From Bacteriovoracia bacterium (GTDB lineage: Bacteria; Bdellovibrionota; UBA1018; CAIPTA01): a stretch of 64,000 nt of DNA. The notes below the pieces were generated by a model that was not told the origin of the DNA, made no database searches, and worked only from the letters and a program-made list of their open reading frames with translations. A program made the translations under genes and the position numbers. The DNA lies in assembly GCA_050246755.1 (NCBI GenBank), contig JBFWVL010000001.1:1728001-1792000 (forward strand), given 5' to 3'. Numbering within the stretch: the first letter of the stretch is position 1; the number at the start of each line of letters is the position of its first letter. Below, in pieces: positions 25,862 through 43,105 of this stretch.

Positions 25862-26191
25862 TCTAGTCTATGGGTCTCAAAGGGGTCGGCAGTCGCGTTC
25901 TGAGAAGCGACATTTCATGCACGTTTGCATAGTACTCTCAGTTGGCGGGGAATTCTTGATAAACCCTTGTCAGGATTCCACACCCAATAAAATCTATGGT
26001 TTAAAGGTTACATTAAGGAAATAACGCAATGCGCGAATATTAATTACATAGTTATGATGCAGATGCTTTTGTCAAAAGTTCAAGAATTATCTGGCACTCC
26101 ATTTGGTTCTTGTTAGCATTATTTTACTAATTCGTTAGGGCCAACGTTCAGGGATTTGAAAGTCGGCGTGAATCTACATGGAGGAATTTGT

Positions 26192-27901
26192 ATGAAGTCA
26201 GCAGGAATCGCATGGTCCTTAGCAGTTATCGGTGCCGCCGGTGCCGGATTGTTCACTGGGCTCGACAATAACGCACATTCAGATATCGCAAAATTTACGA
26301 CCCAGCTTGCGCAACACGAGCGCGTGCCCGGCGAAGTAATCGTAAAGATGTCGCGCCAGGGTAAAACCCTCGCCGTGAATTCTTTGCTCTCGCAATTCAG
26401 TATCTCCTCCATGAACGCTTTCGAAACGAACAACAGCTTTTATAAAGTGAAGCTCGCGCGCGATTCCGATACGGCGCAATTCCTCGAGGCCGCTTCCCAC
26501 AATCCTTCCATCGAATACGCCGAACCCAACTACATCATGCATGTGCTTGGTTCCGAAGATTCTGAAGTGCTTCCTAACGACTCCGATTTCGACAAGCTCT
26601 GGGGCATGAAGAATATCGGCCAAAAAGATTCCGCTGGTACCGTTGGGGTTGCCGGCGCTGATATCGGTGCTACCAAAGCCTGGAAAACCACCACGGGTAA
26701 TAAAGACATCCTCGTGGCCGTGATCGATACCGGCGTGGACTATACCCACCCCGATCTCAAGGACAATATCTTCGTGAACGCGGGCGAGATCGCCGGTAAC
26801 GGCATCGACGACGACGGCAACGGTTTCGTGGACGACGTGCATGGCTGGAACTTCGCCGGCGTTTCCACCAACGATCCTATGGATGATAACGAGCACGGTA
26901 CTCACGTATCGGGCACGATCGGCGGCAAAGGAAATAACGGATTGGGCGTAGCCGGTGTGAACTGGACCACCTCCATCCTTCCCGTGAAATTCCTCACCGG
27001 CGCGGGCAGCGGAACCTTGGAAGACGCCGTGAAGTCGATCCAGTACGCGACCCTCATGAAAGCCAAAGTGATGAACAACTCGTGGGGCGGCGGTGGTTTC
27101 ACCCAGTCTCTCTACGACGCGATCGCGGGCGCCAAAGCCGCTGGTTTGCTCTTCGTAGCGGCCGCCGGTAACGATAGCCAAAATGCCGATTCTAGCCCGC
27201 ACTATCCCGCCGGCTACCAGATCGACAACGTGATCGCCGTTGCGGCCACCACCAACCAAGATACGCTCGCTAGCTTCTCCACCTACGGAAAGCGCACCGT
27301 GCATATCGCGGCCCCTGGCCACAAGATCTACTCCTCCGTTCCGGGCAATAAGTACGATTCCTTCAGCGGAACCTCGATGGCCACTCCTCACGTAGTGGGC
27401 GCCGCGGCTCTTCTCTGGGGAACCGATACCAGCATGACCTATGCTCAAGTGAAAGAACGTCTCTTGGCTTCCCGCGATTTCATTCCTTCGCTCTCGCGTA
27501 AGGTGGCATCGAGCGGCCGCTTGAACATCTACAATGCGATCAACGGGATCTATCCTCCTTCTCCGGAACCAGCCGAGAGCGCTTGGCGTGATTTCGCCTT
27601 CCAAGGCACCGTAGAATCGGAACACCCTTACGCGAACTCCGCGAAGCAAGAGTGGTCGATCGAGGGCCCCGCCGATGCGAAGTTCATGCGCGTGGTATTC
27701 TCGAAGGTTGACCTCGAGAGCGGCTACGACTTCGTAAAAATCTACGACGCTTCGGGCGCCGAGATGGATGCCGTGTCCGGCAAGAGCGATAACCAGACTT
27801 CGTTCTACGTAACCGGCAACAAAATGACCCTGAAACTCACCTCCGACTCCAGCATCAACAGCTGGGGCTTCGCGGTGGGCAAGGTTCAAGTAGTTTATTA
27901 A
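26192..27901 (+). CDS. Secreted S8 subtilase with prodomain and C-terminal CUB domain
   Basis: VIDTG, HGTHVSG, AAGN, GTSMATPHV; C-terminal ESEHPY...DLESGYDFV...FAV CUB-like domain; GGAGG RBS before ATG 26192. Confidence 0.93.
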   Translation: MKSAGIAWSLAVIGAAGAGLFTGLDNNAHSDIAKFTTQLAQHERVPGEVIVKMSRQGKTLAVNSLLSQFSISSMNAFETNNSFYKVKLARDSDTAQFLEAASHNPSIEYAEPNYIMHVLGSEDSEVLPNDSDFDKLWGMKNIGQKDSAGTVGVAGADIGATKAWKTTTGNKDILVAVIDTGVDYTHPDLKDNIFVNAGEIAGNGIDDDGNGFVDDVHGWNFAGVSTNDPMDDNEHGTHVSGTIGGKGNNGLGVAGVNWTTSILPVKFLTGAGSGTLEDAVKSIQYATLMKAKVMNNSWGGGGFTQSLYDAIAGAKAAGLLFVAAAGNDSQNADSSPHYPAGYQIDNVIAVAATTNQDTLASFSTYGKRTVHIAAPGHKIYSSVPGNKYDSFSGTSMATPHVVGAAALLWGTDTSMTYAQVKERLLASRDFIPSLSRKVASSGRLNIYNAINGIYPPSPEPAESAWRDFAFQGTVESEHPYANSAKQEWSIEGPADAKFMRVVFSKVDLESGYDFVKIYDASGAEMDAVSGKSDNQTSFYVTGNKMTLKLTSDSSINSWGFAVGKVQVVY

Positions 27902-30010: not shown

Positions 30011-30228
30011 GGAGCCCCCCGTTTGGCGTGAGCGAGTTTTATAATCAGAACGGATTGGGGGGTCAATGCGAGAGGCGGGGGTGAGGCATTTCGGGGGGCT
30101 AGGGGATTCCGGGTGAGATTTGGGAGGGATGAAGACAAAAACCGGTAAAATCCCAGCACAATCAAAGAGATATGCTCACCACCAAATCCCTTTTCTTGCG
30201 CCGTGCGGAACGTTACTATTTTCGTCCG

Positions 30229-31260
30229 ATGGACGGTGACTTTTACAAATCCCACTTAGAACGCGTGAGCAGGAGCTTTTCCTTCTGCATCGCCCAGCTC
30301 GACGGTGATTTCCGCAATTGGGTGAGCCTTTCTTACTTACTTTGTCGCATTCTAGATACGGTTGAGGATGCAAATTGGGCCAAGCCCGAACAACAGGCGG
30401 AAGCCTACCTTCGTTTCCAGGAATTCTTAGATCGTTCCGTGCCTCCCGCCCGCGTGAAGGCCTGGATTGAATCCTTTCCCGCGGGCATCTCCGAGGGAGA
30501 GCGCTTGCTCATCGTAGACGCCGGCGGCGCCTTCGAGCGGTTCCATGCTTTACCCCAGAGTATTCAGGCGATGATGCGTTCTTCGATCCTCAATATGTAC
30601 CGGGGCATGAACTATTTTTCCCGCGAGCGCAAAGAAGGCAGCGCGATCCGGCTGCGTGATCTGCCCGACGTGAATCAGTACTGTTTCTTCGTGGCGGGCG
30701 TGGTGGGAGATTTGCTCACCAATCTTTTGGCCGGGGCTTCGGGCAAGGCCGTGGATCCCTCGCATTTGCTGGATGGCCACCACTTCGGGCTTTTCCTGCA
30801 GAAGGTGAATTTGCTCAAGGATCAGGCGGAAGACGAAAAGCAGGGCCGCCACCTCGTGGTGCCTTCGCGGGAAGCATTGCTGGCGAGCGTGAAGGCGAAT
30901 GCCGAGGGCGCGATCCGTTACCTTACGGCGATACCGGTAAAGGAACGCGGGTACCGGATTTTTTGTGCCTGGTCGCTGTTCTTGGGGCTTTCTTCGTTGC
31001 GCTGGATGGAGAGATCCACGTTCTTTGGCCACGTGTTCATGAATAAGCCGCCCCGTATTTTTACCAAGTGGAAACTCAAGCGGGTAAAAGACCGGATCGA
31101 CGATAACGAGGCTCTCGTGGAATTTTTCCGGCAATGCTTGCCTGCTTTTCCCGCCGTAAACGAGCCGGGCTTGGAAAAAAAAGAGCTGGCTTCTACCTCT
31201 TTGCAGGCTTACCAGGGCCCTCTGGAAGGATCACAGTTCCGTGCCCTAGGGATGATCTAA
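30229..31260 (+). CDS. Squalene synthase (eukaryote-like single-enzyme type)
   Basis: VSRSF flap, ILDTVEDA, YCFFVAGVVG, FGLFLQKVNLLKD, RIFCAW, matching farnesyl-diphosphate farnesyltransferase motifs. Confidence 0.88.
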   Translation: MDGDFYKSHLERVSRSFSFCIAQLDGDFRNWVSLSYLLCRILDTVEDANWAKPEQQAEAYLRFQEFLDRSVPPARVKAWIESFPAGISEGERLLIVDAGGAFERFHALPQSIQAMMRSSILNMYRGMNYFSRERKEGSAIRLRDLPDVNQYCFFVAGVVGDLLTNLLAGASGKAVDPSHLLDGHHFGLFLQKVNLLKDQAEDEKQGRHLVVPSREALLASVKANAEGAIRYLTAIPVKERGYRIFCAWSLFLGLSSLRWMERSTFFGHVFMNKPPRIFTKWKLKRVKDRIDDNEALVEFFRQCLPAFPAVNEPGLEKKELASTSLQAYQGPLEGSQFRALGMI

Positions 31261-31381
31261 ACTCACTCTACCGGGAAGAATCCTGTCTCCGCGTACGTCA
31301 ACTATTCGTTTCCCGGCCCCCGGCTTCCGCATTAATATTATAAGACGATCTTTCTAGAGACTGGAAAGCACCTACCCACGG

Positions 31382-32545
31382 ATGGGGAATACAATGCTCG
31401 TACTGCTCGGATTTTCTGCCCTGCTGCTTTTTTCCACCACGCTCTACCAAATCACCACCGTTTGTTTGCTCCTGCGCCGCCAGGCGAGGAAGCGCGCGCT
31501 GTCTCAGTCCCCCTCTGCTATCCGCGAGTTTCCCGGGATTTCCGTTTTGATTCCCGTGAAAGGAATTTATCCGACCTTCGGCGGAAACCTGCGCTCGATT
31601 TTTGAGCAGGATTATCCGGGGCCTATCGAAGTGATTCTGGGGGTGCAGTCCGAGAGCGATCCCGTGCTGGAGTTTTCCCGCAAGGTAGCGAGCTCGCTGG
31701 GAAAAGGCGATAAGATTCACTTCGCGGTGGGCGGGAAAGACGCGGGCCTCAACCCAAAAAATTCCAATCTTTGCCGCGCTTTTCCTAAAGCCAAGTACGA
31801 CTGGCTCTACTGCTGCGATTCCGACGTGGCCCTCGAGCCTTCGTTTTTTCTTAATGCGATCGCGGTGCTCGACGAAAATACCTACGGCTCCACCTTCAAT
31901 ATTTTCCGCCAGGCGCCGAATCTGGGCGCGATGCTCGAGGGCGTGGGCACGAACACCGAGGCTTCCGCATTTTTCCTCCTCGCGGCGTTAAATCCCGCCA
32001 AGGGCGTGATGAACGGCGCCTCAATGATTTTTCATCGGAGCCTGCTGGCCCGGGTGGGCGGCTTCGAGGTGGCGCTGAATCAGATCACCGACGATCTCTA
32101 CCTCGCTAATAAATTTAACGGGCTCGGTGCCCGGTTCGCGCTTTTGCCCAATAATGTGGTGGAGCATATTCCGGCGCAGTCTTTTTCCGTTTTCTGGAAC
32201 CGCGTTCTGCGTTGGCTGTTGATCGCGCGCTGCAACCGCAAAGATCTTTTCTACGGCGCGCCCACGAGCTGGGTATGGCAATGGAACTTGCTGATGCTGC
32301 TGGTTACCTGCGATTCCCGCTTCCTGCTTCTCTTCGGAGCCGCGCTGGCTGGGCGCCTCCTGTTCTCGATGATTTTTCAGGGAACGCTAGCCGGATGGCG
32401 TGAATGCTGGAAGGTGATCGTGATCCCGATCTACGATTTGCTGGGGCCCGTGGCCTGGACTATCTCCCTCTTTACGAAAAATATCGTGTGGGCCGGGAAC
32501 GAGCTGATCGTGAGTTCGAGTGGTACTTTGGAGCACAAGAAGTAA
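31382..32545 (+). CDS. GT21/HpnI-like (ceramide glucosyltransferase family) glycosyltransferase
   Basis: N-terminal TM, SVLIPVKG, GLNPKNSNL, CDSDV, TDD, RVLRW, C-terminal TMs and IVWAG; stop abuts the cyclase start. Confidence 0.85.
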   Translation: MGNTMLVLLGFSALLLFSTTLYQITTVCLLLRRQARKRALSQSPSAIREFPGISVLIPVKGIYPTFGGNLRSIFEQDYPGPIEVILGVQSESDPVLEFSRKVASSLGKGDKIHFAVGGKDAGLNPKNSNLCRAFPKAKYDWLYCCDSDVALEPSFFLNAIAVLDENTYGSTFNIFRQAPNLGAMLEGVGTNTEASAFFLLAALNPAKGVMNGASMIFHRSLLARVGGFEVALNQITDDLYLANKFNGLGARFALLPNNVVEHIPAQSFSVFWNRVLRWLLIARCNRKDLFYGAPTSWVWQWNLLMLLVTCDSRFLLLFGAALAGRLLFSMIFQGTLAGWRECWKVIVIPIYDLLGPVAWTISLFTKNIVWAGNELIVSSSGTLEHKK

Positions 32546-34444
32546 ATGGCCTATAGCCCCGCAATGAAAACCGCGATCGCTAAAGCGGAAGATTTTCTGC
32601 TCGCTGCCCAGAACAAAGATGGCTCCTGGATCGGGGAGGTGGGCCTCAATCCCGGGCCTACGGCCCAGGCGGTGATGCTCTACGCGAGCCTGCAGAAAAA
32701 ATTCCCGGCTTCGGTGGCACCGAAGGCGAAGCAGTATGTGCTGCGCACCCAAAATCCCGACGGGGGATGGAGCACGCATCCTGGTGCGCCCAGCGAGGTT
32801 TCGCTTACCTGTGAATGCTACGTGGCGCTACGGCTCTTGGGAGTGCCTGCATCCGATCCCGTTTGCGCCAAAGCGCGGAGCGTGATCGAAGCGGCGGGGG
32901 GAACGAGCGCGGCCAATCCCTGGACCCAGCTTTATCTTGGCATCCTGGGAGTTCTTCCTTGGGAAAAAATCCAAATCATTCCCATCGAGCTCGTGCTCCA
33001 GCCCGCATTTTCACCATTTTCGATCGAGCATCTAGCCTACTGGGTGAGGGTGATCACGGTGCCGATGATGCTCGTGGGCGCAATTGGCCCTTATCCGCTC
33101 GCGAAAATGGCGGGAGAGCTGGCCGAAGAACTCTCCACCGAAAATTTCGACTCGCGAAGAAATATGGGGATGATCGGAAAAATCATCGCGAAGTGCGCCG
33201 CCGTGGCGGGCCACGTGGGAGTGCCCGGGCTGCGCGCAGTGGCGATTAAAAAATCCCTGGAGTATATCCGCAGCTGGACCGAGAAACACGGCGACTTCGG
33301 CGGCAATACTTGCACTGCGATCAACGTGATCGTGGCGTATTCGAAAATCGGCGAACATGAAGAGGAAGTGCGCAAAGGGCTCGAAGCGTTCATGAGCTAC
33401 GCGATCGAGACGGAGGAGGAATGGCGCCTGCAAACCTGCCAGAGCCATGTCTGGGACGCGGCCTTCGTGATGCAGGCTTTGCGCGGGGAAAACCCCAGTG
33501 CGAAGGTAAAGGCCGCGCTCGAGCGCGGAGCGGAGTGGCTTACCGATCGCCAGATCGTGAAAACGCGCGGGCCCTGGAGCAAGAACGTGAAGGCCGCCCC
33601 GGGGGGGTGGTGTTTCGGGAATCGCCACGAGCATTTTCCCGTAACCGATTGCACGGCGGTTTCGGTTTTGGCGCTGAAAGATACCGTGCCCGATTATTGG
33701 AATACCCGCGGCTCCCGGCTCGCGGTGGACTGGCTCGTGGGGATGCAGCACGGCACGGGCGGCTGGTCGGCCTACGAAAAATTCGAGCGCGGCGAGCTCC
33801 TCAACCGCCTGGTGACGTTCAAGGATATTCCCGATGCCCTTGTGGATCGCCCGAAGGCCGACGTTTCGGCCAAGGTAGTGGAGGCGCTCTGCGCGGCAAG
33901 GCCCTGGCATCCGGAGCTTCATTCCGTATTGGCCGATGCCCGGGCCTTCCTGCTCGCGAAACGGGAAACTTCCTACCAGGTTTGGCGGGGGAACTACGGA
34001 ATAAATTATATTTATGGAACATCCTTCGCCGCCAAGGCTTTGCGGGCCATCGATGGGCATCCCAGCGTGGACTGGGCTCCCGCTGTGCTGCGCTTTTTCT
34101 TGAATCGCCAGAACGGAGATGGGGGCTGGGGTGAGAGCGACGCCAGCTACTTTCATAAGGAGAAGGCGGGGTACGGGCCCTCCACGGTTACCCAAACGGC
34201 CTGGGCTCTATTGGGTCTTATTCACGCGTTGGATCCGTCAAACCCCCCTAAAGAGGCCTTAAAAGCGATTAAAAATGGGGTAGAGTACCTGCTTAAAAAA
34301 CAGGAGGAAGCCGGCAATTGGACCGAGGAACTGTCTTTGTGCACGGTTTTTCCGGGCATGGTTTACTTCCACTACGAATTTTATCCCGTGGTATTTCCGC
34401 TGCTCGCTTTGCGCGAAGCGGGCAAAATACTGGCAGCTCACTAG
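32546..34444 (+). CDS. Class II triterpene cyclase (SHC-like scaffold, oxidosqualene-cyclase-type VTDCTA motif)
   Basis: QW repeats (QNKDGSW, QNPDGGW, QHGTGGW, QNGDGGWGES, QEEAGNW), SHVWDAAF, GGWCF...PVTDCTAV, GINYIYGT, VFPG. Confidence 0.93.
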   Translation: MAYSPAMKTAIAKAEDFLLAAQNKDGSWIGEVGLNPGPTAQAVMLYASLQKKFPASVAPKAKQYVLRTQNPDGGWSTHPGAPSEVSLTCECYVALRLLGVPASDPVCAKARSVIEAAGGTSAANPWTQLYLGILGVLPWEKIQIIPIELVLQPAFSPFSIEHLAYWVRVITVPMMLVGAIGPYPLAKMAGELAEELSTENFDSRRNMGMIGKIIAKCAAVAGHVGVPGLRAVAIKKSLEYIRSWTEKHGDFGGNTCTAINVIVAYSKIGEHEEEVRKGLEAFMSYAIETEEEWRLQTCQSHVWDAAFVMQALRGENPSAKVKAALERGAEWLTDRQIVKTRGPWSKNVKAAPGGWCFGNRHEHFPVTDCTAVSVLALKDTVPDYWNTRGSRLAVDWLVGMQHGTGGWSAYEKFERGELLNRLVTFKDIPDALVDRPKADVSAKVVEALCAARPWHPELHSVLADARAFLLAKRETSYQVWRGNYGINYIYGTSFAAKALRAIDGHPSVDWAPAVLRFFLNRQNGDGGWGESDASYFHKEKAGYGPSTVTQTAWALLGLIHALDPSNPPKEALKAIKNGVEYLLKKQEEAGNWTEELSLCTVFPGMVYFHYEFYPVVFPLLALREAGKILAAH

Positions 34445-34538
34445 GCAAAACCTCCACACCTGTACAAAAGATAAACAAAAAATGGGGGCCGGAATCGATA
34501 TTCCCCAACGAAACTCAGGTGTTTGCCCGAATTTATAC

Positions 34539-34570
34539 TTGACTGTTTTTGTCGGATTCTTTAGTATACT
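34539..34570 (+). promoter_or_regulatory. Sigma-70 promoter for the hydrolase-epoxidase unit
   Basis: TTGACT-N17-TAGTAT, with an overlapping TATACT 6 nt before ATG 34577. Confidence 0.6.
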
Positions 34571-34576
34571 TGCACC

Positions 34577-35992
34577 ATGTTGAAGCTAAAGCTGTTGATG
34601 TTGCTTACCGTAGGTTCCACCGCGCTCGCCGCCAATTCCTTCGCTGGAGTTATATACGATAAAGGCGGGATGCCCCGCTGTATCTCGATGGAAGGAAGAG
34701 ACCTCCTTCTCCTCTGGGATGCATCAGACCTCTACTCCCGGGAGATCTATACCCTCGACACCGGTACCTATACGGCCCGCGATACCATGAATCCGCAGAC
34801 CTATAACTGCCACAGCTTGCCCGCGAAGCTGAGCGAAGTGCCAAAATCTGATTTAACCGTTCTCGCCAAAGGCGCCAAAAGCGTGGGCCCATTCAGCCTG
34901 GCCAGCGCCCGCATGCAGAAATCCTTAGACCAAATTCGCAATGGCGCTACCGCCTACCGCGAAGAAACCGACGCAAAATCCTTCCTGCGCAAGTACCCCA
35001 TTTCGAATTTCACGCTCGAAACCAACCGCCGGCTCACCGCGATGTATGGTGTGGGCTTCGTTTCCGAGATCTACGCCGAGATCATCGCCAGCGACCCAAA
35101 CAACAAGGCATTCTCCGATTTGATCAACGGCAACCTTCGTTCCCAGGCTTCCGATCTGGCCGCCGTGAAAAAGAATCGCACCGTGATCTACGTGAAAGGA
35201 ATCGGCCACGAGCTGAACAATTCCAAGCAGTACGATGTGTTCGTGGATAATCTCCGCAAAGGCGGCGTGGAAGTGAAAATCGTGAAAACTCACTCTTGGG
35301 ACACGATCGATACGAACGCCGCGATCGTGAAGAGAGCGCTCGAGATCGAGCTCAAGAAAGGCAAAAGCCTGATCTTGATCGGCCTTAGCAAGGGCGGCTC
35401 GGAATCCCTCCTCGCGCTTTCTATGCTTAGCAAGACTCTCGATGCGAAGCCCGCTGGCTACGGAAAAGTGGAAGCCTACCTCGGCCTCTCGGGCGTATAT
35501 GGCGGATCTTTCCTTGTGGACTGGGCCGGCAGCCTTCCCCAGCGCTTGATCATGAGTCATCTCATGAAAGACGAATATGAAAAAGAAGGCAAGAAGCTGC
35601 CCACGATCGACGGAATCCTCGACGTGAAATCCGAACCCGTGGCCGACGTGATGAAGCAAGTAGCCCATAACGGCTTGCCCCAGGAAACCACTTATTTCAG
35701 CATCGTGGGCGCGATCACCGGCGATGGTCTCGCCGCTAAAACTTCCTATATTCGCAGCTTGCAGCAAGACATCATCCGCGCGCAGCTCGACGGCTACGGC
35801 GCGAACGATGGATACATCGAGTATCCCGGAACCGCGGTACCGAAAAAATTAGTGAAGAAGTCCTATATCGGTAGCTTGAATGCGAGCCATTCCCTTGTGG
35901 ACGGCACGTACCAAGGGCAGCCGGTGGTGGGTGGCCCGGAAAACGTAGTGAACGCCATCTCGATGGCCGTTTTCCAGATTCTCGCAAAGTAA
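34577..35992 (+). CDS. Secreted alpha/beta-hydrolase (lipase/acyltransferase-like)
   Basis: Signal peptide ending SFA; oxyanion segment YVKGIG, nucleophile elbow GLSKGG, NDG, ASH. Confidence 0.75.
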   Translation: MLKLKLLMLLTVGSTALAANSFAGVIYDKGGMPRCISMEGRDLLLLWDASDLYSREIYTLDTGTYTARDTMNPQTYNCHSLPAKLSEVPKSDLTVLAKGAKSVGPFSLASARMQKSLDQIRNGATAYREETDAKSFLRKYPISNFTLETNRRLTAMYGVGFVSEIYAEIIASDPNNKAFSDLINGNLRSQASDLAAVKKNRTVIYVKGIGHELNNSKQYDVFVDNLRKGGVEVKIVKTHSWDTIDTNAAIVKRALEIELKKGKSLILIGLSKGGSESLLALSMLSKTLDAKPAGYGKVEAYLGLSGVYGGSFLVDWAGSLPQRLIMSHLMKDEYEKEGKKLPTIDGILDVKSEPVADVMKQVAHNGLPQETTYFSIVGAITGDGLAAKTSYIRSLQQDIIRAQLDGYGANDGYIEYPGTAVPKKLVKKSYIGSLNASHSLVDGTYQGQPVVGGPENVVNAISMAVFQILAK

Positions 35993-35997
35993 TCCTC

Positions 35998-36027
35998 GTT
36001 GTTGTTGAACCAGTTGTTGTTGTTGAG
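35998..36027 (+). repeat. Two short (GTT)n tracts in the epoxidase leader
   Basis: (GTT)3G at 35998-36007 and (GTT)4GAG at 36013-36027. Confidence 0.7.
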
Positions 36028-36035
36028 GTTTTGAA

Positions 36036-37427
36036 ATGTCGAACGTTGTTAATAAGAATAGTCCTGACTTTTTGATCGTTGGCGCTAGCATCGCGGGCAC
36101 CGCCCTGGCGGTTGGTCTCAGAGAAAAAGGTTTCAACGTGATGCTGATCGAGCGCGAAGCTTCGCCCCGTGAGCGCTTCAAGGGAGAATTTCTCCAGCCC
36201 TTCGCCGTGAAACAATTCACGAAGCTAGGCTTCGGCGATCTCTTCCACGCCGAAGGCACCCAGAAGATCCGCGAATTGAAATTCCGCGATCTCGACAAGG
36301 ACAATAACGTGGTGAGCGAAGTACTCGTGCCCTACCTGGGCCAAGATTTTGCCGCCGTGGTTCCCCATAAAGATTTGATCACCGGCCTCCAGAAGCGCGC
36401 CACCGAGCTTTTAGGCGAAAGCTTCCTACTCGGCACCACCGCGGAACCGCTGAACCAAGCTGACGCCGATTTTCTAGAGCACCCACGCTTCCTGATCAAG
36501 CGCGAAGGCCAAGAGTCCTTCGAGATCTCACCCCGTTTCGTGATCGGCTGCGACGGACGCCAGTCGGCGGTTCGTTCCTGGATGGGGGGCCCCAAGGCTC
36601 CCGCCATGGGTTCGCCCACCTTCGGCACCCAGCCCGAATTCATCGTGGGCGCCGAGCTTCACGGCAAACGTCCACTCCCTTGCCGTTACGAAGTGATCCG
36701 TACCGCGGGCCAAGGCACAATCGCGCTTTTCCAAACCCGGCCGGAATCGCAGCGCCTCTACTGGAACGCGCTCGCCGTTCCCGGTTCGAATAAAAAAACC
36801 TGGGAGAGCTCGCTCCAGAAGATCGTTCCCGAGCTGAAAGAGCTGGCCGACCTCGATTCCTCCGACGTGGAGAACGTAGCTGGCAGCCCCGCCGACCAAG
36901 TCTGGTTCGGCCCCGCCGCGAAATCGAACTTCTTCCTCGTGGGTGACGCGCTCGCCGTTACCTCTCCGCTCGGCGGACAGGGCATGACCTGCGCCATGCG
37001 CGAAGTGGAATCTCTTCTCCAGAGTTTCCAGCAGTACGTTGATGGTGTTTCTACCCTCGGCGAAGTACGGGAAGACTACTCTTCGCTCGCCCGCTCCACC
37101 TACTACCATATCTGCCTGCTGAACTTCGGCCTCTACTATCTCTTCTACGCCTCGGGCCGTATGTTCAAGCTCGTTTCCCGCTTCATTCTCGGGGAATGGA
37201 ATAAGCATCCCGAAATTTGCGCTCGCGTGGGCGCGCTCTTCAGCGGCATGAGCTTCGACACTCCCGGCCTCGGTGAGCTTCTCCGTCTTTGGGGAATCCT
37301 ATCCTGGGTACAACCCGCCGCCCACAAGCCGGCTCCTCGCAAATCCTTCATCGGCGCCGCGCTCTACCGCCGCCGTTATACGGATGCGCGCGAGCAGCAC
37401 CGCGCCAATAAAGCGCACTCCGCGTAA
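36036..37427 (+). CDS. Squalene epoxidase-like FAD-dependent monooxygenase
   Basis: IVGASIAG, RFKGEFLQP (cf. SQLE RIVGELLQP), GCDG, GDALAVTSPLGGQGMT (cf. GDAxNxRHPLTGGGMT), LYYLF; located in a squalene synthase/cyclase cluster. Confidence 0.85.
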   Translation: MSNVVNKNSPDFLIVGASIAGTALAVGLREKGFNVMLIEREASPRERFKGEFLQPFAVKQFTKLGFGDLFHAEGTQKIRELKFRDLDKDNNVVSEVLVPYLGQDFAAVVPHKDLITGLQKRATELLGESFLLGTTAEPLNQADADFLEHPRFLIKREGQESFEISPRFVIGCDGRQSAVRSWMGGPKAPAMGSPTFGTQPEFIVGAELHGKRPLPCRYEVIRTAGQGTIALFQTRPESQRLYWNALAVPGSNKKTWESSLQKIVPELKELADLDSSDVENVAGSPADQVWFGPAAKSNFFLVGDALAVTSPLGGQGMTCAMREVESLLQSFQQYVDGVSTLGEVREDYSSLARSTYYHICLLNFGLYYLFYASGRMFKLVSRFILGEWNKHPEICARVGALFSGMSFDTPGLGELLRLWGILSWVQPAAHKPAPRKSFIGAALYRRRYTDAREQHRANKAHSA

Positions 37428-37451
37428 TTCTCGATCTCTCAACAACATGGT

Positions 37452-37486
37452 GGGGCCGAACTTTGGTTCGGCCCCTTTTTCTTTTT
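37452..37486 (+). terminator. Intrinsic terminator after the squalene epoxidase
   Basis: GGGGCCGAAC-TTTG-GTTCGGCCCC followed by TTTTTCTTTTT. Confidence 0.92.
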
Positions 37487-37642: not shown

Positions 37643-38968
37643 ATGCCTTTTTCCGCCCCCCGAAAAGCAAAATCGCTTTCGCTCATTTTATTGAGCTGCG
37701 CGCTTTGCCCGGCGGCGGACGCGGCCCGGCCGATTTTAACGCCGCGAAAGGCCGCACCGCTGCTGATCTACGATATTGGGCTCGAATTGTGGGGCGCAGG
37801 CGGCGCACGCTCGCTCGCGAAAACCCCGGTGAATCCGGACAATCTCGTGGCGCGTATTCCGGAAACCGCGCTCACGGCGGAAGCGCGGCCAGACGTGCGC
37901 CTCCGCGTGAAAAAAGCCCGCGTAACGGCGCGGCCCCGCCTAATCTATACGCAAAACAATACGAAATCGGGCGCGGCCAAAACCACCAAGAACGTGGGCC
38001 GGATCCAGTGGAGCGAAGCCTACGCCTCGCTCGACATTTCGGATACGCTAGCGCTCGCCTACGGGTTGCAAAATTACCAGTGGGGCCCTTCTGAGTCGGC
38101 GAGCCCCAGCAATAGAATTTTCCGCGATACGGTAGAGGCCAAAGACGTGCTCTACGTAGTAAAGGGCAAACACCTCGTGCGCGTGAATTTTACTCCTCGG
38201 CCGGGGTGGAGCGAAGTGGCGCTCTTCGAAGTTTCCACGAACGGAAGCCCGGAATACGAAGCCCAGGAAAAGTTCGCCCAGAAGGCGCTCCTGAAATCGG
38301 AGTATTCCTGGGGCGGGGGCGCGGATTATGCCGGCATCGTTACGGGCTGGAGAAACCACGATGGGCTCTGGATCGGAGAGTACTTTAATTCCGACGTCTA
38401 CGAAGGCCTTTCGCTTTTTTTCGATATCAGCCACCAGATGGGAAGCCTGGCGTACTATCCCGTGGATAATTCCGGCGTCACCGTTCTTTCCCAGGCGCAT
38501 AAGTCCGATAAGAAAATTTATACCTTCGCCACCTTCGGCGGCCACTACGCGTTCGTGAACGGAATCGATCTCCGCTTCGAGGGAATTTTTCAGGAAGCCG
38601 GTTACAGCAAGAAACAAGTGCAGTCGGTATGGAACGCCCTCGCTTCGAACGTGCCGCAGCAGCAGGTTTTCTTCGCCATGAACTCGGCGCTGGCGTACCA
38701 GAACGGGCTCGAGTTTCCCGGGCAGAAATATCTATTCTCCTCCGTGCGCTATCCGAATTTTTTGAACGTGCGGAACTGGACGCTCTACGCGCGCGGCCTT
38801 CTTTCGCTGCAGGATTCCTCGAGCTCGGCCTTTCTGAGCTCGGAAAACGCCGTGGGCCAGCGCGGAACGATTTTCGCGAGCGTAGCCGCCTTCTCGGGAA
38901 AAATGGATTCGGAGCTGCGGGGCCTCGTGGCCTACGCGGGAATATTGGGGTACCGGCATGCCTGGTAG
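37643..38968 (+). CDS. Putative outer-membrane beta-barrel protein
   Basis: Signal peptide, alternating aromatic beta-strand pattern, C-terminal YRHAW; first gene of the ABC operon. Confidence 0.7.
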   Translation: MPFSAPRKAKSLSLILLSCALCPAADAARPILTPRKAAPLLIYDIGLELWGAGGARSLAKTPVNPDNLVARIPETALTAEARPDVRLRVKKARVTARPRLIYTQNNTKSGAAKTTKNVGRIQWSEAYASLDISDTLALAYGLQNYQWGPSESASPSNRIFRDTVEAKDVLYVVKGKHLVRVNFTPRPGWSEVALFEVSTNGSPEYEAQEKFAQKALLKSEYSWGGGADYAGIVTGWRNHDGLWIGEYFNSDVYEGLSLFFDISHQMGSLAYYPVDNSGVTVLSQAHKSDKKIYTFATFGGHYAFVNGIDLRFEGIFQEAGYSKKQVQSVWNALASNVPQQQVFFAMNSALAYQNGLEFPGQKYLFSSVRYPNFLNVRNWTLYARGLLSLQDSSSSAFLSSENAVGQRGTIFASVAAFSGKMDSELRGLVAYAGILGYRHAW

Positions 38969-38974
38969 GAGTGA

Positions 38975-39655
38975 GTGATGAGCAAGTCGATCATAAAATT
39001 GGAAAATATTTCGAAGGATTACCGCATGGGTCAGATCCGCGTGCCCGCGCTGAAATCCGTGAACCTGGATATTTTCGCCGGTGAATTCACCGCCGTGATC
39101 GGAGCTTCCGGCTCGGGCAAGAGCACGCTGCTGAATATGATTGGCTGCATCGATCAGCCCGATACCGGGAAGATCTTTCTCGACGGCGTGAATATCATTC
39201 CCCTGAGCGACGATAAGAAGAGCGATCTCCGGAACCAGAAAATTGGATTTATTTTTCAGTCGTTCAATCTCGTGCCGGTGCTTTCGGTATTCGAGAACGT
39301 AGAGCTTCCGCTGCTCATCAATCCCGCCATCTCGGCCGAAGACCGCAAAAAGCGCGTGCTCCAGGCCATCGACGATGTGGGTCTCCAGGCGTACGCCAAA
39401 AATCTTCCCGATCAGCTCTCGGGAGGGCAACGCCAGCGCGTGGCGATCGCCCGCGCCCTGGCCGGCAATCCCGTGCTGGTATTAGCCGACGAGCCTACCG
39501 CCAACCTCGATTCGGATTCTTCCAACAAGATCCTCGATCTGATGATCGATCTCAACTCCAAGCGCGGGATCACCTTTCTCTTCTCCACCCACGATGAAAA
39601 GCTGATGAAGCGCGTTTCCCGTATCATTCACATCAAAGACGGGGTGGTTGGCTGA
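38975..39655 (+). CDS. ABC transporter ATPase (LolD/MacB-like)
   Basis: GASGSGKST, IGFIFQSFNL, LSGGQRQRVAIARAL, ADEPTANLD, STHD. Confidence 0.96.
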   Translation: MMSKSIIKLENISKDYRMGQIRVPALKSVNLDIFAGEFTAVIGASGSGKSTLLNMIGCIDQPDTGKIFLDGVNIIPLSDDKKSDLRNQKIGFIFQSFNLVPVLSVFENVELPLLINPAISAEDRKKRVLQAIDDVGLQAYAKNLPDQLSGGQRQRVAIARALAGNPVLVLADEPTANLDSDSSNKILDLMIDLNSKRGITFLFSTHDEKLMKRVSRIIHIKDGVVG

Positions 39656-41010
39656 TGTGGCAGTTCTGGTTCCTTTCCCTTAGAAACCTTCGTCGCAATT
39701 CCAAGCGGAATCTCGCCACGGGCTGCGCGATCGCGTTCGGTTTCTGCGGGATCCTGCTTTTGCAGGCCTACGCCTTTCGCGTGGAGAATTTTCTGCGCGT
39801 GCACACGCTCTACTCCCTGCACACTGGACATATCGTGTTGCTCGCGGACCAGGGCTTCGATAAATTTCGCTATAATCCCCGCAAGTATAGCCTCACGCCC
39901 GAAGACCAGCGCTTCATCCTGAACGCCTTGAAAGACGAGGCCGGGATCGAGGCGGTGGAGAAGCAAATCACCGGGCAGGGTCTGCTGGGGAACGGCTGTA
40001 TCTCGCTGCCGTTCATAGCGCGGGGATTAGAGCCCGCGGTCGACAAGATCCTCCGGGCGCACCCGCAAGTAAAGGAATGGATGCCCAACCAAAAATTCCT
40101 GAAATCAGGGCAGGGGCTTTCCGATTCTAAGGCAGGTGAAGGCCTACTCCTGAGTTTGGGGCTGGCTACGGCGCTAGGCAAAACCACGATGCTCGGCGAT
40201 ATTCCGCCTGGTGCGCCGATTACGCTCGTGGATTGCGCGGCTCCCGACGTGAAGGAGCAGCTGAAAAAAGATTCCAACGTGCAGCTGCTTTCCGGCACTT
40301 GGCGGGGAGCAATGTCGGCGGTGGATGGAGAAGCCATCGGAATCTTCCAGACCGGGTTCCAGGAAGCCGACAATTCCGCCATTTTGGCCGACGTGGCCTT
40401 GCTCCAAAAATTGTTCGATACCGAGAACGTGGAGAGAATTTCGGTCTGGCTTAAAGACGATAAAAAAATCCCCGAGCTTTCCAAAAAACTAAACGAAAAG
40501 TTCGCCGCCGCCGGGAAGAAATATGATCTCGTTTCTTGGAATGAAGAACGGCTTTCCCCTTACTATTTCGGCTCGAAGCAATTTCTCGACACTCTTTCGG
40601 CCTTCGTTTCGATGATCCTCGCCGCGGTGATCGCCCTCTCCGTGCTCAATTCCACCACCATGACGATCATGGAACGTTCCCAGGAAATCGGCATGTACCG
40701 CGCGATGGGATTCCGCCGCCGGCAGGTGCGACGCCTTTACCTGCAGGAATCGCTGCTGCTCTCCTTGATTTCGCTCGGGGTGGGCACGCTTCTAACCATC
40801 GCGGTGATCCTGGCCATCAATTCCGCCAATATTGTTTACTATCCGCCTGGTGTCTCAAACGGGATGGTCCTTCGTTTCGTGCTTAACGAAAGCTCTGCGG
40901 CGAAGGCCGCGGGGATGATCCTAGTCCTGGTTTTATTGGCTACGTTCATGGCGGTTTCTAGCCGGCTCCGGCAAAAACCCGCTGACTTATTGGGAGGTAC
41001 TTTACGATGA
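39655..41010 (+). CDS. ABC transporter permease (FtsX/LolE/MacB-like)
   Basis: LRNLRRN...TM, large periplasmic domain, ERSQEIGMYRAMGF, three C-terminal TMs. Confidence 0.92.
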   Translation: MWQFWFLSLRNLRRNSKRNLATGCAIAFGFCGILLLQAYAFRVENFLRVHTLYSLHTGHIVLLADQGFDKFRYNPRKYSLTPEDQRFILNALKDEAGIEAVEKQITGQGLLGNGCISLPFIARGLEPAVDKILRAHPQVKEWMPNQKFLKSGQGLSDSKAGEGLLLSLGLATALGKTTMLGDIPPGAPITLVDCAAPDVKEQLKKDSNVQLLSGTWRGAMSAVDGEAIGIFQTGFQEADNSAILADVALLQKLFDTENVERISVWLKDDKKIPELSKKLNEKFAAAGKKYDLVSWNEERLSPYYFGSKQFLDTLSAFVSMILAAVIALSVLNSTTMTIMERSQEIGMYRAMGFRRRQVRRLYLQESLLLSLISLGVGTLLTIAVILAINSANIVYYPPGVSNGMVLRFVLNESSAAKAAGMILVLVLLATFMAVSSRLRQKPADLLGGTLR

Positions 41011-41777
41011 TCCGGTTTCTTATGGTTTTTTTCCTCAGCGTTTCCGCCATCGCCGCTTCGGGCCCTAAGGGCAAAGCTCCGGCTAAAGGAGAAGGTGTGA
41101 ATGCGCTCGAGCTTCTTAAGGTGAGTGACCGCGCACGCGGAGCCGCCGCCGCGCTCCAGGGCGTGAGCTGGACTTCCCAGGTGAAATCCGTGGAGGCCGA
41201 TGAGGAAAGCAGCGTAACCTACGCGATCAAGATCCGTGGGAACGACGCGCTCGCCGAAGCCATCGATCCTCCCCGCCAGAAAGGAGAGCTCGCGCTCTTC
41301 AACGACCGCACACTCTGGTTTTTTAAGCCGGGCCTGAAGAAACCCATTAGCATTTCTCTACGCCAGAAGCTCATGGGCCAGGCGGCAAACGGCGATATCG
41401 CTTCCACGCAGTACGCCCGCGACTACGAACCCGTTTCCACGAAGCAGGAAACCATCAACGGACACCTGGTTTGGCTCCTCGATCTCAAGGCGAAAGCCAA
41501 GAACGTGACCTACGACCGCATCCGTTACTGGATCACCGATAAAGAGAAGCTCGCCGTGAAAGCGGAGTTCCTCACCGTTTCTGGCCAGGTTTTTAAGATC
41601 GCGGAATTCAAGTATGGAAACACGATCGTGCTCAAAGGCACCAAGTTTCCTTTCGTGGGCGAGATGAAGATTCGCGACGCGAATAATCCCAAGAACGTGA
41701 CCACCATCACTTATAGAAATCCCCGGGAAGAAGCGCATGCTCCGAGCCTTTTCAACGTGAACAACTTGGTAAAGTAA
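41007..41777 (+). CDS. Outer-membrane lipoprotein-sorting (LolA-like) protein
   Basis: Signal peptide; P.RQKGE, LWFFKPG.KKPISIS.RQKLMGQAANGDIA, YDRIRYWI. Confidence 0.85.
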   Translation: MIRFLMVFFLSVSAIAASGPKGKAPAKGEGVNALELLKVSDRARGAAAALQGVSWTSQVKSVEADEESSVTYAIKIRGNDALAEAIDPPRQKGELALFNDRTLWFFKPGLKKPISISLRQKLMGQAANGDIASTQYARDYEPVSTKQETINGHLVWLLDLKAKAKNVTYDRIRYWITDKEKLAVKAEFLTVSGQVFKIAEFKYGNTIVLKGTKFPFVGEMKIRDANNPKNVTTITYRNPREEAHAPSLFNVNNLVK

Positions 41778-41779
41778 GA

Positions 41780-43105
41780 ATGTATACCTCGCGGAAACTA
41801 TTGATGCTCAAGCTGGCATCGAGAAATATCTTCCTGAACTGGCGCCATAGCTTGGCCACCGTGCTTGCGATCATGGCGGGCTTTACCTCCGTGGCGCTGC
41901 TGGACGGATTTATTTCCGCGATCAACGAAGTTTCTCAGGATGGCACCGTGAACAAGGGAATGACCGGGCATTTCTTGCTGGAAAAGCGCGGAGCCAAAGA
42001 TCATCTCTTCGAAGATCCTTGGCTCTATTCGCTGAGCAAAGAAGAGCAGGATAAAGTTTCGGGATGGCTTGAAGGTGATAAGCGCGTGAAAGCTTCGATG
42101 CGCTACCTCACGCTCAGTGGTCTCATTTCCAATGGGAAGAACTCGGCGATCTTCATTGGCGCCGGCATCGACGAAGCGCGCGGCCTGAAATTCCGCGGGG
42201 ATAAGTGGGCCTGGAATACCGTGGCCGGGAAACCTTTCTACCTCGATAATTCCGGATTCCAGATGGGCGTGGGTATGGCCACCCGGATGGACTGCAAGTT
42301 CAGCGAAAAGTACGACCTCAATAAAGACGGCTCCTATAAGGCCGAAGAGAGGCCGCTGGAATGCGCGAATCCCGTATTTCAAATTTCCGCTACCACGGAG
42401 CATGCTCAAGTGAACGCGCTCACGTTGAGCCCCACGGGCCTCGTGGATCTGCATATCCGAGAATACAACGATAAGATCATCTACTTGCCCCTCACGGCGG
42501 CCCAACAGCTCCTCGATACCGACCGGATCACTCGGTTCTCGGTACTGCTCAACGATGAAGGCACACGAAACGCCTTTGTTCGCGATTACGAAGAGAAAAT
42601 TAGGGCCTCGGGACTGGATCTTGAGGTCGTGCACTGGCTCGATCACCCCGTGGGCTCGGCTTCCAAAGGCGGGATGGCAGTGTTGAACATGTTCCGTTGG
42701 CTCTTCCTCACGATCGTGGCGGTGGTGGCCGTGATGTCGGTGGCTAATTCGCTGATGAAGAGCATCAACGAGCGGATCCGGGAGATCGGTACCCTGCGCA
42801 GCTATGGCTTCCGGCGTACCGATATCGTTCTTCTATTTTCGTTTGAAGGTCTGCTGCTGGGGTTCTTCGCCTGCCTGTTGGGAATAATCCTGAGTTCCGC
42901 CCTGGCTTTTGCGATTTCCAATGGAGGAATGACGTTCAATGCCGGCGTGATGAGCACGCCGCTGGCCATCAAGATCGATCTCGCGCTGGGCGTATGGGCA
43001 GGTTCTTCCTTCGTGCTGTGCCTGGTAACGTTCCTGGCTTCCTGGATTGTTTCCCGCCGGGCGGCGAAGATGACGATCGCCGATGCCTTACGGCATATCG
43101 CCTAA
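41780..43105 (+). CDS. ABC transporter permease (FtsX/LolE/MacB-like)
   Basis: ASRNIFLNWRHS...TM, ERIREIGTLRSYGF, C-terminal IADALRH. Confidence 0.92.
   Translation: MYTSRKLLMLKLASRNIFLNWRHSLATVLAIMAGFTSVALLDGFISAINEVSQDGTVNKGMTGHFLLEKRGAKDHLFEDPWLYSLSKEEQDKVSGWLEGDKRVKASMRYLTLSGLISNGKNSAIFIGAGIDEARGLKFRGDKWAWNTVAGKPFYLDNSGFQMGVGMATRMDCKFSEKYDLNKDGSYKAEERPLECANPVFQISATTEHAQVNALTLSPTGLVDLHIREYNDKIIYLPLTAAQQLLDTDRITRFSVLLNDEGTRNAFVRDYEEKIRASGLDLEVVHWLDHPVGSASKGGMAVLNMFRWLFLTIVAVVAVMSVANSLMKSINERIREIGTLRSYGFRRTDIVLLFSFEGLLLGFFACLLGIILSSALAFAISNGGMTFNAGVMSTPLAIKIDLALGVWAGSSFVLCLVTFLASWIVSRRAAKMTIADALRHIA

Follow-up and report, generated by a model that had tools for sequence, protein, structure and literature searches.

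Which lipid is made by a gene run that couples a triterpene cyclase to a flavin monooxygenase in a bacterium of the phylum Bdellovibrionota is the question raised by this locus. The window analysed here is a stretch of 64,000 nucleotides from contig JBFWVL010000001.1, and the first-pass annotation had already called its host a probable member of this phylum; in keeping with that call, RpoB of the host is identical to that of a record named Bdellovibrionota bacterium. Five genes, all on the + strand, span 30229-37427. We assigned them from their open reading frames and, in each case, further evidence: a squalene synthase (SQS)-type synthase (P0002, 30229..31260, family matches), an integral-membrane HpnI-like glycosyltransferase of the GT2/GT21 type (P0003, 31382..32545, family matches), a triterpene cyclase of 632 aa (P0001, 32546..34444, SQHop_cyclase domains, motif and trees), a putative lipase-fold alpha/beta-hydrolase of 471 aa (P0004, 34577..35992, predicted structure), and a class A flavin monooxygenase of 463 aa that resembles squalene monooxygenases (SQMOs; P0005, 36036..37427, family and PDB matches). 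The stop codon of the glycosyltransferase and the start codon of the cyclase abut in the junction TAAATG. The run is closed by a strong intrinsic terminator on the + strand (37452..37475), which begins 25 nt downstream of the monooxygenase stop and consists of a 10 bp stem with 8 GC pairs, a loop of 4 nt and then TTTTTCTTTT. The initial description of five co-oriented genes with a closing terminator thus agrees with the coordinates of the reading frames and the hairpin. We consider it fairly probable that 30229-37427 forms a single operon dedicated to an oxygen-dependent triterpenoid.

The cyclase carries both SQHop_cyclase domains, which form two alpha-alpha barrels (PF13249, 212 bits; PF13243, 262 bits). 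It scores 398.6 bits with the squalene-hopene cyclase (SHC) model TIGR01507, under the curated cut-off of 431.1, and about 255-261 bits with the oxidosqualene cyclase (OSC) model TIGR03463 (osq_cycl), far under the curated cut-off of 851. In pairwise comparisons, Alicyclobacillus acidocaldarius SHC (266 bits) ranks above human OSC (156 bits). The stretch H-F-P-V-T-D-C-T-A of the cyclase, with the motif residues V366-T-D368-C369-T-A, aligns with D374-V-D376-D377-T-A of the A. acidocaldarius enzyme, and in every clade member examined the equivalents of D374 and D377 are Val and Cys. We found P-V-T-D-C-[TS]-A in all 26 aligned clade proteins and D-x-D-D in the four ordinary SHCs aligned alongside, and V-T-D-C-[TS]-A recurs in all eight further locus copies of the cyclase. 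A separate active-site alignment gave the same picture (motif in 15/15 clade rows, V/I-x-D-C in 13/13 OSC rows, D-x-D-D in 22/22 SHC rows). The V-T-D-C-T-A clade is small and its known members all come from uncultured organisms; our literature search found no published description of it.

Beyond the motif, alignment indicates a mosaic active site. OSC-like residues stand at V366, C369, Y410-E411, Q41 and the F605 position, where a small residue is found; SHC-like residues are W166, K443, D439 and E90, and five positions carry residues seen only in this clade (N254, C256, N483, Y484 and V601). The equivalents of W489, F605 and G600 are altered in the clade, and those of W169, W312, F365, F601, Y609 and Y612 are retained in the cyclase. 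Trp166 is present in 15/15 clade rows, as in SHCs, at a position occupied by His in 12/13 sampled OSCs. This bears on the His/Tyr pair of the OSC deprotonation site (H232 and Y503 of the human enzyme): its Tyr has a counterpart here (Y410-E411), shared with 12/13 OSCs, but Trp166 replaces the His partner and the pair is incomplete. Because of this mosaic, the ring system of the product is not predictable.

Phylogeny separates the clade from SHCs. All four trees placed it as sister to the OSCs, with an SH-aLRT of 97 for the grouping in the first tree and UFBoot/SH-aLRT values of 100/98 for the sister relationship. This placement survived the removal of 33 motif and signature columns (SH-aLRT 99) and was recovered in a tree whose representatives were sampled from 1.84 billion proteins (SH-aLRT 92). 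The OSCs themselves were monophyletic (100/100), with the V-T-D-C-T-A clade outside, as their sister, and not within them. An AU test of a group chosen after seeing the tree rejected the union of the clade with SHCs (p 0.003, log-likelihood difference 25.8). The OSC sample in these trees consists mostly of one myxobacterial class plus library representatives, and the outgroup of two long-branched SHC-like proteins that are separate from the window cyclase clade. The first-pass annotation had spoken of enzymes of hopanoid lineage; for the cyclase this finds no support, as trees and AU test make its clade sister to the OSCs instead of nesting it in the SHCs. As a separate observation, the overall sequence scores of the cyclase are nearer to SHCs, although the trees place its clade with OSCs.

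The distribution of the cyclase is tied to that of the monooxygenase. Among 127 genomes of the class, an identical set of seven carries the V-T-D-C-T-A cyclase and the SQMO-like gene, namely the host (G000), G019, G038, G060, G061, G070 and G101. The two genes are adjacent in seven of the eight other loci, the eighth ending at a contig edge, and the identity ranks of the two proteins run parallel across loci. At E <= 1e-30, no SQMO-like gene was found in class genomes with ordinary DVDDTA SHCs (e.g. G026, G028 and G030). The conserved functional unit is the cyclase together with the monooxygenase, and the remaining operon genes join this pair in only some relatives. The proposal that the two enzymes act in concert on an epoxidised substrate is supported by the invariant motif, the shared genomes and the adjacency. 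A search for the whole gene set in other genomes had also been suggested: the pair does recur, and the synthase, the glycosyltransferase and the hydrolase do not follow it consistently. Co-occurrence and adjacency support an oxidosqualene route, and the constant association of an OSC-related cyclase with an epoxidase-like enzyme suggests an undescribed lipid, sterol-like and oxygen-dependent, as the probable product of the operon.

The monooxygenase appears to be a class A flavin enzyme distantly related to SQMOs. It matches PF01494 with 91 bits; on the squalene epoxidase model PF08491, P0005 reaches 21.6-22.6 bits (cut-off 20.1), a level to be read with care as this model also matches in E. 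coli and Caulobacter, and true SQMOs of Polyangia score 121-235 bits. Neither E. coli nor Caulobacter is known to epoxidise squalene. Among PDB entries, P0005 is closest to human squalene monooxygenase (6c6n, 61.7 bits, ahead of 35 bits for the second match), and a profile built from eight family sequences matches 6c6n with 99.3 bits over positions 4-400 of 453 (next structure 59.5 bits). In searches with the predicted structure, SQLE has the top TM-score (0.70-0.71), and by E-value PHBH-type enzymes come before SQLE, which ranks fourth; the fold search does not single out SQLE. No paralogue of P0005 is present in the host genome. It is the pairing with the cyclase, and only this, that suggests squalene epoxidation by P0005.

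Squalene itself would be supplied by the first gene of the run. The synthase matches PF00494 (SQS_PSY) with 86 bits, over profile positions 2-175 of 263 only, and the squalene synthase model TIGR01559 with 91 bits, under its cut-off of 286. Among PDB entries, human and trypanosome squalene synthases score 52-53 bits, phytoene synthase 24.5 and CrtM 20; the HpnD model gives 35 bits. Two Asp-rich motifs, D-T-V-E-D and D-Q-A-E-D, are present. These comparisons set the protein closer to SQS than to any of CrtM, CrtB and HpnD. The start at 30229 corresponds to Met20 of the longest reading frame, which opens at 30172, and homologue alignments start at residues 11-25. Synthase orthologues with 46-52% identity occur in four of five congeners that have no cyclase at all; the gene itself is resident in the lineage.

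Altogether, a route from farnesyl diphosphate through squalene and oxidosqualene to a triterpenol is, judging from the genes, the probable pathway of the operon. The SQS-type synthase would join two farnesyl diphosphates into squalene, as its family suggests, and the SQMO-like enzyme would convert squalene to 2,3-oxidosqualene, for which distant homology and strict gene pairing speak. The cyclase, to go by motif, phylogeny and pairing, would then open the epoxide and fold the chain up to a polycyclic triterpenol with a 3-hydroxyl, Asp368 between Val366 and Cys369 acting as general acid in OSC fashion and not in that of the SHC D-x-D-D. More speculatively, the membrane-bound GT21 enzyme of this sub-lineage may glycosylate a hydroxyl of the product, after which the periplasmic lipase-fold enzyme may attach or remove an acyl group.

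As to these last two proteins, the glycosyltransferase has hydrophobic segments at both termini and matches PF13506 (Glyco_transf_21) with 95.8 bits; its best family model is HpnI (TIGR03472), at 173 bits under an equivalog cut-off of 310. Homologues with 40% identity adjoin the cyclase in two other loci, L099 and L105, and reach HpnI scores of 154-175 bits. The hydrolase gave no match by sequence in Pfam, NCBIfam or PDB, and has six homologues among 5.8 billion proteins. Its AlphaFold model (pLDDT 77.4, with residues 405-414 below 50) retrieved in Foldseek esterase 5d8m and family I lipases at the top (E 4e-6, TMq 0.36-0.38) and cholesterol esterase 7cof at rank 16. In an alignment of seven sequences, K272, G273, D411, H438, D442, C35 and C78 are invariant, and in a candidate Ser-Asp-His triad of Ser271, D411 and H438 the Ser is Cys in one sequence; the N-terminus, judged by eye, is signal-peptide-like. 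The fold of the model suggests an alpha/beta-hydrolase of the lipase type, and its family is very rare.

Three other readings of the locus deserve consideration. It might be an ordinary hopanoid operon, in which squalene is protonated directly to hopene or diplopterol, the flavoenzyme has some other task and the glycosyltransferase is a plain HpnI. The locus does share with SHC/hpn clusters the two-domain fold and length of the cyclase, many active-site aromatics, including the six retained residues named above, and the HpnI-like glycosyltransferase, and the cyclase scores higher with the SHC model and the A. acidocaldarius enzyme than with OSCs. Unlike those clusters, it has no D-x-D-D, the residues at D374 and D377 being replaced throughout the clade and W489, F605 and G600 changed as well; cyclase and glycosyltransferase stay under the SHC and HpnI cut-offs, and the clade falls outside SHCs in the trees and the AU test. 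The flavoenzyme, moreover, accompanies this type of cyclase in 7/7 genomes and was missing, at the threshold given, from those with DVDDTA SHCs. In a search of the whole host genome, which is 95.7% complete, no HpnH was found above cut-off (best model match 69 bits against 225), and hence there should be no bacteriohopanetetrol for HpnI to act on; the synthase being the sole SQS_PSY gene, HpnC and HpnD are missing too. We therefore regard a hopanoid operon as very improbable.

A second possibility is that the substrate of the pair is not squalene but another polyprenyl in epoxidised form, such as a head-to-tail chain or a meroterpenoid, in the way of actinomycete cyclases that use a terminally epoxidised chain. 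Cyclases of the superfamily with epoxidised non-squalene substrates are known (PMC12414744, in the part available), no SQS gene adjoins the cyclase in any of the eight other loci, and four of the six other carriers (G019, which is 97% complete, G060, G061 and G070) yielded no SQS_PSY gene, so that the substrate there would be scavenged or not be squalene. These four genomes are MAGs, however, and predators could obtain squalene from their prey. The only SQS-type gene of the host heads the operon, one is present too in G101, the closest of the carrier genomes, and the clade groups with triterpenoid cyclases, apart from the SHC-like outgroup; this substrate is accordingly unlikely. Less easily set aside, if still doubtful, is the idea that the triterpenol is the end product, and that the glycosyltransferase and the lipase-fold protein work on different lipids, of the ceramide or envelope type, and are merely co-transcribed. 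A close homologue of the glycosyltransferase is found in 2/8 other loci and 1/6 other carrier genomes, and one of the hydrolase in 1/8 loci; the pair in other carriers has a TetR regulator, an outer-membrane factor and an RND pump as neighbours; and GT21 in Pfam is the ceramide glucosyltransferase family. Against this, the glycosyltransferase stop abuts the cyclase start, the gene stands beside the cyclase in all three loci that have it, its best model is a hopanoid glycosyltransferase, and in L099, which keeps the hydrolase, an extra gene with an acyltransferase domain separates those of cyclase and glycosyltransferase. Of the glycoside or acyl-glycoside suggested at first pass, then, what stands is the presence of both genes; their conservation with the pair does not extend beyond the loci just counted, and such an end product is weakly indicated.

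The preferred oxidosqualene route can be set beside known systems. In the bacterial sterol pairs of Methylococcus, Gemmata and Myxococcota, as the available part of PMC7306690 presents them, a flavin epoxidase gene likewise adjoins a V/I-x-D-C-T-A cyclase, the pathway depends on oxygen, as predicted here, and the OSCs are those to which the window clade is sister. The window cyclase differs from them in its SHC length (~630 aa), its score under the OSC cut-off, Trp in place of the common His and its five unique active-site residues, and the monooxygenase in its 22 bits on PF08491. No P450, and hence no CYP51, was found genome-wide, and ERG4/24 gave no match in a search whose controls were silent too. 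The absence of hpnC/hpnD, hpnH and CYP51, first noted for the window, thereby extends at profile cut-offs to the whole genome. Bacterial and plant (acyl) steryl glycosides would be analogous glycolipids should the 3-OH product be the substrate of the glycosyltransferase and the lipase-fold enzyme. Helicobacter and Borrelia make steryl glycosides from host cholesterol that they take up, with unrelated transferases; the present operon would instead provide its own aglycone by de novo synthesis.

According to the accessible part of McShea et al. 2025 (PMC12414744), SHCs accept oxidosqualene, and metagenomic SHC-crown cyclases, two of them with D-x-D-D, act on it exclusively and yield hopanol; the motif is thus not the sole determinant of the substrate. 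The window cyclase shares with these enzymes an SHC-like look and, by prediction, the preference for an epoxide. They have D-x-D-[D] and belong to the SHC crown, and no epoxidase partner is described for them in that part of the paper, whereas the window clade has V-x-D-C, groups with OSCs and has an SQMO-like neighbour. Tentatively, we propose that a stem lineage of the OSCs survives in the V-T-D-C-T-A cyclases, which would have SHC size and a largely SHC-like cavity but protonate an epoxide. Their partner would be a relative of squalene monooxygenase that branches equally deep, and in uncultured Bdellovibrionota the two would make 3-oxygenated triterpenoids of a new class, which some lineages would glycosylate. 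If so, the cyclases would represent a living intermediate between cyclisation of the hopanoid and of the sterol type, and oxygen-dependent triterpane biomarkers would have a new source among bacteria. No named myxobacterial protein falls in the clade, and the profile of the window monooxygenase family detected no member in 201 Polyangia genomes at E <= 1e-20 (8 candidates scored per genome). A comparable arrangement, an epoxidase homologue beside a non-canonical cyclase, does occur in Plesiocystis and Enhygromyxa, where, in the available part of Santana-Molina et al. 2020 (PMC7306690), SQMO genes are contiguous with an undefined 'SHC-like' cyclase.

The cyclase (P0001) belongs to a plus-strand operon that, as the first-pass annotation had described, comprises five co-oriented open reading frames closed by a terminator (30172-37475). 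An SQS-type synthase (P0002, 30229-31260, counted from Met20), the only SQS_PSY protein in the genome, is followed by a membrane GT2/GT21 enzyme whose best model is HpnI (P0003, 31382-32545), the two-domain triterpene cyclase itself (32546-34444), which starts right behind the glycosyltransferase stop codon (TAAATG), a fourth protein without family match (P0004, 34577-35992) and a class A flavin monooxygenase (P0005, 36036-37427). The terminator consists of a 10-bp GC-rich hairpin and a T-run (37452-37475). Public sequencing runs include none listed with RNA for the operon. The host genome is a MAG of 3.55 Mb in 10 contigs, 95.7% complete. A record named as Bdellovibrionota has the same RpoB sequence, which supports the proposed phylum, and named relatives at 74-75% RpoB identity carry the labels Bdellovibrionales, Bacteriovoracia and Oligoflexia.

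We found that seven of the 127 species genomes of the class carry the cyclase and that the monooxygenase is present in exactly these seven. No cyclase was found in five congeners, three other genomes of the family and two other genomes of the order, and 401 genomes of the phylum gave no match at E <= 1e-60 outside the class. Eight further loci, from six genomes and two metagenome contigs, were compared: the monooxygenase adjoins the cyclase in seven cases, the glycosyltransferase in two, the hydrolase-like fourth protein in one, and the synthase and the downstream Lol-like genes in none. Of the five-gene set initially proposed as a pathway, the conserved unit is the cyclase plus an epoxidase-like enzyme. 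A pattern scan of metagenomes returned only two loci, each cut at the cyclase.

The DCTA motif reported for the cyclase was substantiated by alignment to the squalene-hopene cyclase (SHC) of A. acidocaldarius, which places V366-T-D368-C369-T-A opposite D374-V-D376-D377-T-A. All 26 aligned proteins of the clade formed by P0001 and its relatives carry P-V-T-D-C-[TS]-A; in the same alignment, D-x-D-D is present in four SHCs. In a search of 5.8 billion proteins this clade is sharply bounded, with about 26 clusters at 42-54% identity, below which identity falls to 34% and ordinary cyanobacterial SHCs appear. Three full-length and two fragmentary representatives account for it among 1.84 billion 50%-identity representatives, after which scores are at SHC level. 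A contig scan with the clade alignment was swamped by the generic Q-x-x-D-G-G-W-G-E; it recovered no clade member, and V-x-D-C was absent from all 80 loci returned, which are ordinary cyclase relatives at 29-37% identity. Overall sequence similarity of P0001 favours SHCs, with 398.6 bits on the SHC model versus 261 bits on the oxidosqualene cyclase (OSC) model, and 266 bits to A. acidocaldarius SHC versus 156 bits to human OSC.

Phylogeny places the cyclase elsewhere than among the hopanoid-lineage enzymes to which it had been assigned. In all four trees (LG+C20 PMSF, computed without SqhC and STC and rooted on two long-branched 'SHC-like' proteins), the clade is sister to the OSCs, which were drawn from one myxobacterial class and from library representatives of untold origin. 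The grouping received an SH-aLRT of 97 with 67 rows and UFBoot/SH-aLRT values of 100/98 with 52 rows. SH-aLRT was 99 with the surroundings of the motif and of other shared sites excluded (33 columns), and 92 when OSC and SHC representatives came from the global library. The best tree uniting the clade with all SHCs, a grouping chosen post hoc once the first tree was known, scored lower by 25.8 log-likelihood units (AU p 0.003). Both stems are long (0.86 for the clade, 1.53 for the OSCs), and a class search for OSCs in 151 small genomes, around a locus titled Planctomycetia, found none. Altogether, a position of the clade on the OSC stem is credible.

Some other cyclases touch on this part of the tree. 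Four rare library representatives (P0284, P0347, P0343 and P0403) show half-way motifs, D-L-D-C-T-A/S or D-K-D-C-T-A; of these, two fall within the SHCs, and two long-branched ones lie near the base of the group of OSCs and V-T-D-C-T-A cyclases. The host genome also encodes a second, very divergent cyclase homologue of 629 aa (C2:26821-28563; L091:10711-12600, minus strand), which has D-V-D-D-T-S, is 25% identical to P0001 and served as an 'SHC-like' outgroup. A relative exists in another genome of the class (G038, L098). Two of the three neighbours scanned have no Pfam family, and the third combines chitin-binding (CBM_14) and Ig-like (He_PIG) domains.

The active site, with SHC numbers taken from the alignment of P0001 to A. 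acidocaldarius SHC, combines residues of both families. C369, Y410 and E411 (SHC F/Y420-D421) are common to the clade and the OSCs and derived relative to the outgroup; V366, Q41 (SHC E45) and a small residue at F605 are also OSC-like. W166, where 12 of 13 OSCs have His, is common to the clade and the SHCs, as are K443 (SHC R/H451), D439 and E90. N254 (I261), C256 (P263), N483 (R488), Y484 (W489) and V601 (G600) are unique to the clade. By these residues, the protonation machinery of P0001 is of the OSC type. Elsewhere the cavity resembles neither family, and so we do not predict the ring system of the product.

The monooxygenase P0005 alone scores 61.7 bits against human squalene monooxygenase (SQLE), the next structure reaching 35 bits, and an 8-member profile of its family gives 99.3 bits to SQLE over positions 4-400, 59.5 bits being the second-best score. 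PF08491, a model that also rings in E. coli and Caulobacter, gives P0005 22 bits versus 121-235 bits for the squalene monooxygenases (SQMOs) of Polyangia, to which P0005 is 24-26% identical by BLAST. Foldseek with the P0005 model did not set SQLE apart from PHBH-type enzymes. Judged by these scores, P0005 is not a canonical SQMO. The family profile found no match at E <= 1e-20 in 201 Polyangia genomes (eight candidates scored per genome), and none of 14 Polyangia OSC genes has an SQMO-like gene closer than about 9 kb, so that these loci supplied no SQMOs for comparison. The most economical mechanism would be that the monooxygenase epoxidises the substrate and the cyclase then performs an epoxide-initiated cyclisation to a 3-hydroxy triterpenoid. 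For the host genome, the synthase at the head of the operon makes squalene the likely substrate.

P0002 contains both Asp-rich motifs and scores 91 bits against a squalene-synthase equivalog cut-off of 286; its best solved relatives are the human and trypanosome squalene synthases (53 bits), followed by phytoene synthase (24.5) and CrtM (20). Synthase orthologues at 46-52% identity are present in four of five congeners and six of eight family genomes, all lacking a cyclase, and the gene behaves as a resident one. Among the six other carriers of the pair, only G101 has an orthologue, and a search at family level gave no SQS_PSY gene for G019 (97% complete), G060, G061 and G070. Relatives with neither cyclase nor monooxygenase (G001-G004, G007-G009; loci L172-L175) keep the orthologue in unrelated gene neighbourhoods. 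Comparison of the host genome with four relatives showed no synteny in the surroundings of the synthase, and insertion boundaries therefore cannot be placed.

The glycosyltransferase P0003 reaches 173 bits on the HpnI model (cut-off 310). P0004 had no match in sequence searches of families and solved structures, and only six homologues among 5.8 billion proteins. By fold, its AlphaFold model (pLDDT 77.4) resembles an esterase and family I lipases at modest TM-scores, a cholesterol esterase ranking 16th, and the family conserves a Ser/Cys-Lys-Gly-Gly/Ala elbow, D411, H438 and two cysteines. From gene position, glycosylation and acyl tailoring of the product are plausible in the sub-lineage that bears the glycosyltransferase; the saponin-like end product first suggested is a guess.

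The cyclase-epoxidase system is real and rare, apparently undescribed and, on sequence grounds, a new variant of the oxidosqualene route. The literature searched contained nothing linking Bdellovibrionota with oxidosqualene or describing a V-x-D-C clade beside the OSCs; large-tree supplements may include members. In the accessible part of one such supplement (PMC12414744), the motif, RZA05496 and the group names are absent, an absence that concerns names only, as the sequences are stored cut. How the sterol cyclases came about, out of hopene cyclases or in parallel with them, is a standing question on which the clade bears. According to the parts of that paper available, the root of triterpenoid cyclases in published trees lies between the SHC and OSC families, and these trees offer no intermediate form showing the order of changes (PMC12414744). 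The clade branches on the OSC side with the OSC acid and Tyr-Glu pair already present. Its members still have the length of an SHC, the Trp of SHCs where OSCs have His, and a basic residue where SHCs have His/Arg451; a concrete, testable order of changes follows from this. The same parts describe oxidosqualene-only enzymes of the SHC crown (McShea et al., 2025; PMC12414744), which keep D-x-D-D, unlike the V-x-D-C of this clade. SQMOs beside 'SHC-like' genes are described for two myxobacteria in the available text of Santana-Molina et al. (2020; PMC7306690). The operon also touches a published statement on the Oligoflexia (that paper's name for the present Bdellovibrionota), and suggests a possible use of squalene by a few Bdellovibrionota. 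Should the operon yield stable 3-oxygenated polycyclics, a further source, bacterial and oxygen-requiring, would have to be weighed in reading triterpane fossils.

Several neighbouring genes deserve mention. Directly past the terminator, 37643-43105 (+) encodes a 441-aa protein without family, a LolD-like ATPase, two FtsX-type permeases and a LolA_like protein, a set that may function in lipid or lipoprotein export. We considered these genes as lipid export partners and rejected them as members of the unit, since they lie beyond the terminator and recur at none of the eight other loci. In two relatives (L092:6697-12061 and L106:3982-8609), the cyclase-monooxygenase pair is flanked by genes for an outer-membrane efflux protein and for an AcrB/MdtC-type RND pump, by which the product may be exported; at L092 a TetR regulator gene adjoins the pair as well. 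On metagenome contig L099, which keeps the rare hydrolase too, a 259-aa protein with a 2-oxoacid dehydrogenase-type acyltransferase catalytic domain (1215-1994, +) lies between cyclase and glycosyltransferase. Elsewhere in the window, 26156-27901 (+) encodes a subtilase (Peptidase_S8) with a fervidolysin-like prodomain and a C-terminal CUB domain, a domain known chiefly from animal proteins. Finally, the 3.5 Mb of the host genome hold six FA_hydroxylase genes (sterol desaturase/C4-methyl oxidase superfamily), two in tandem at C3:185232-187078 and the others at C4:201039, C1:888516, C4:112471 and C2:161208.
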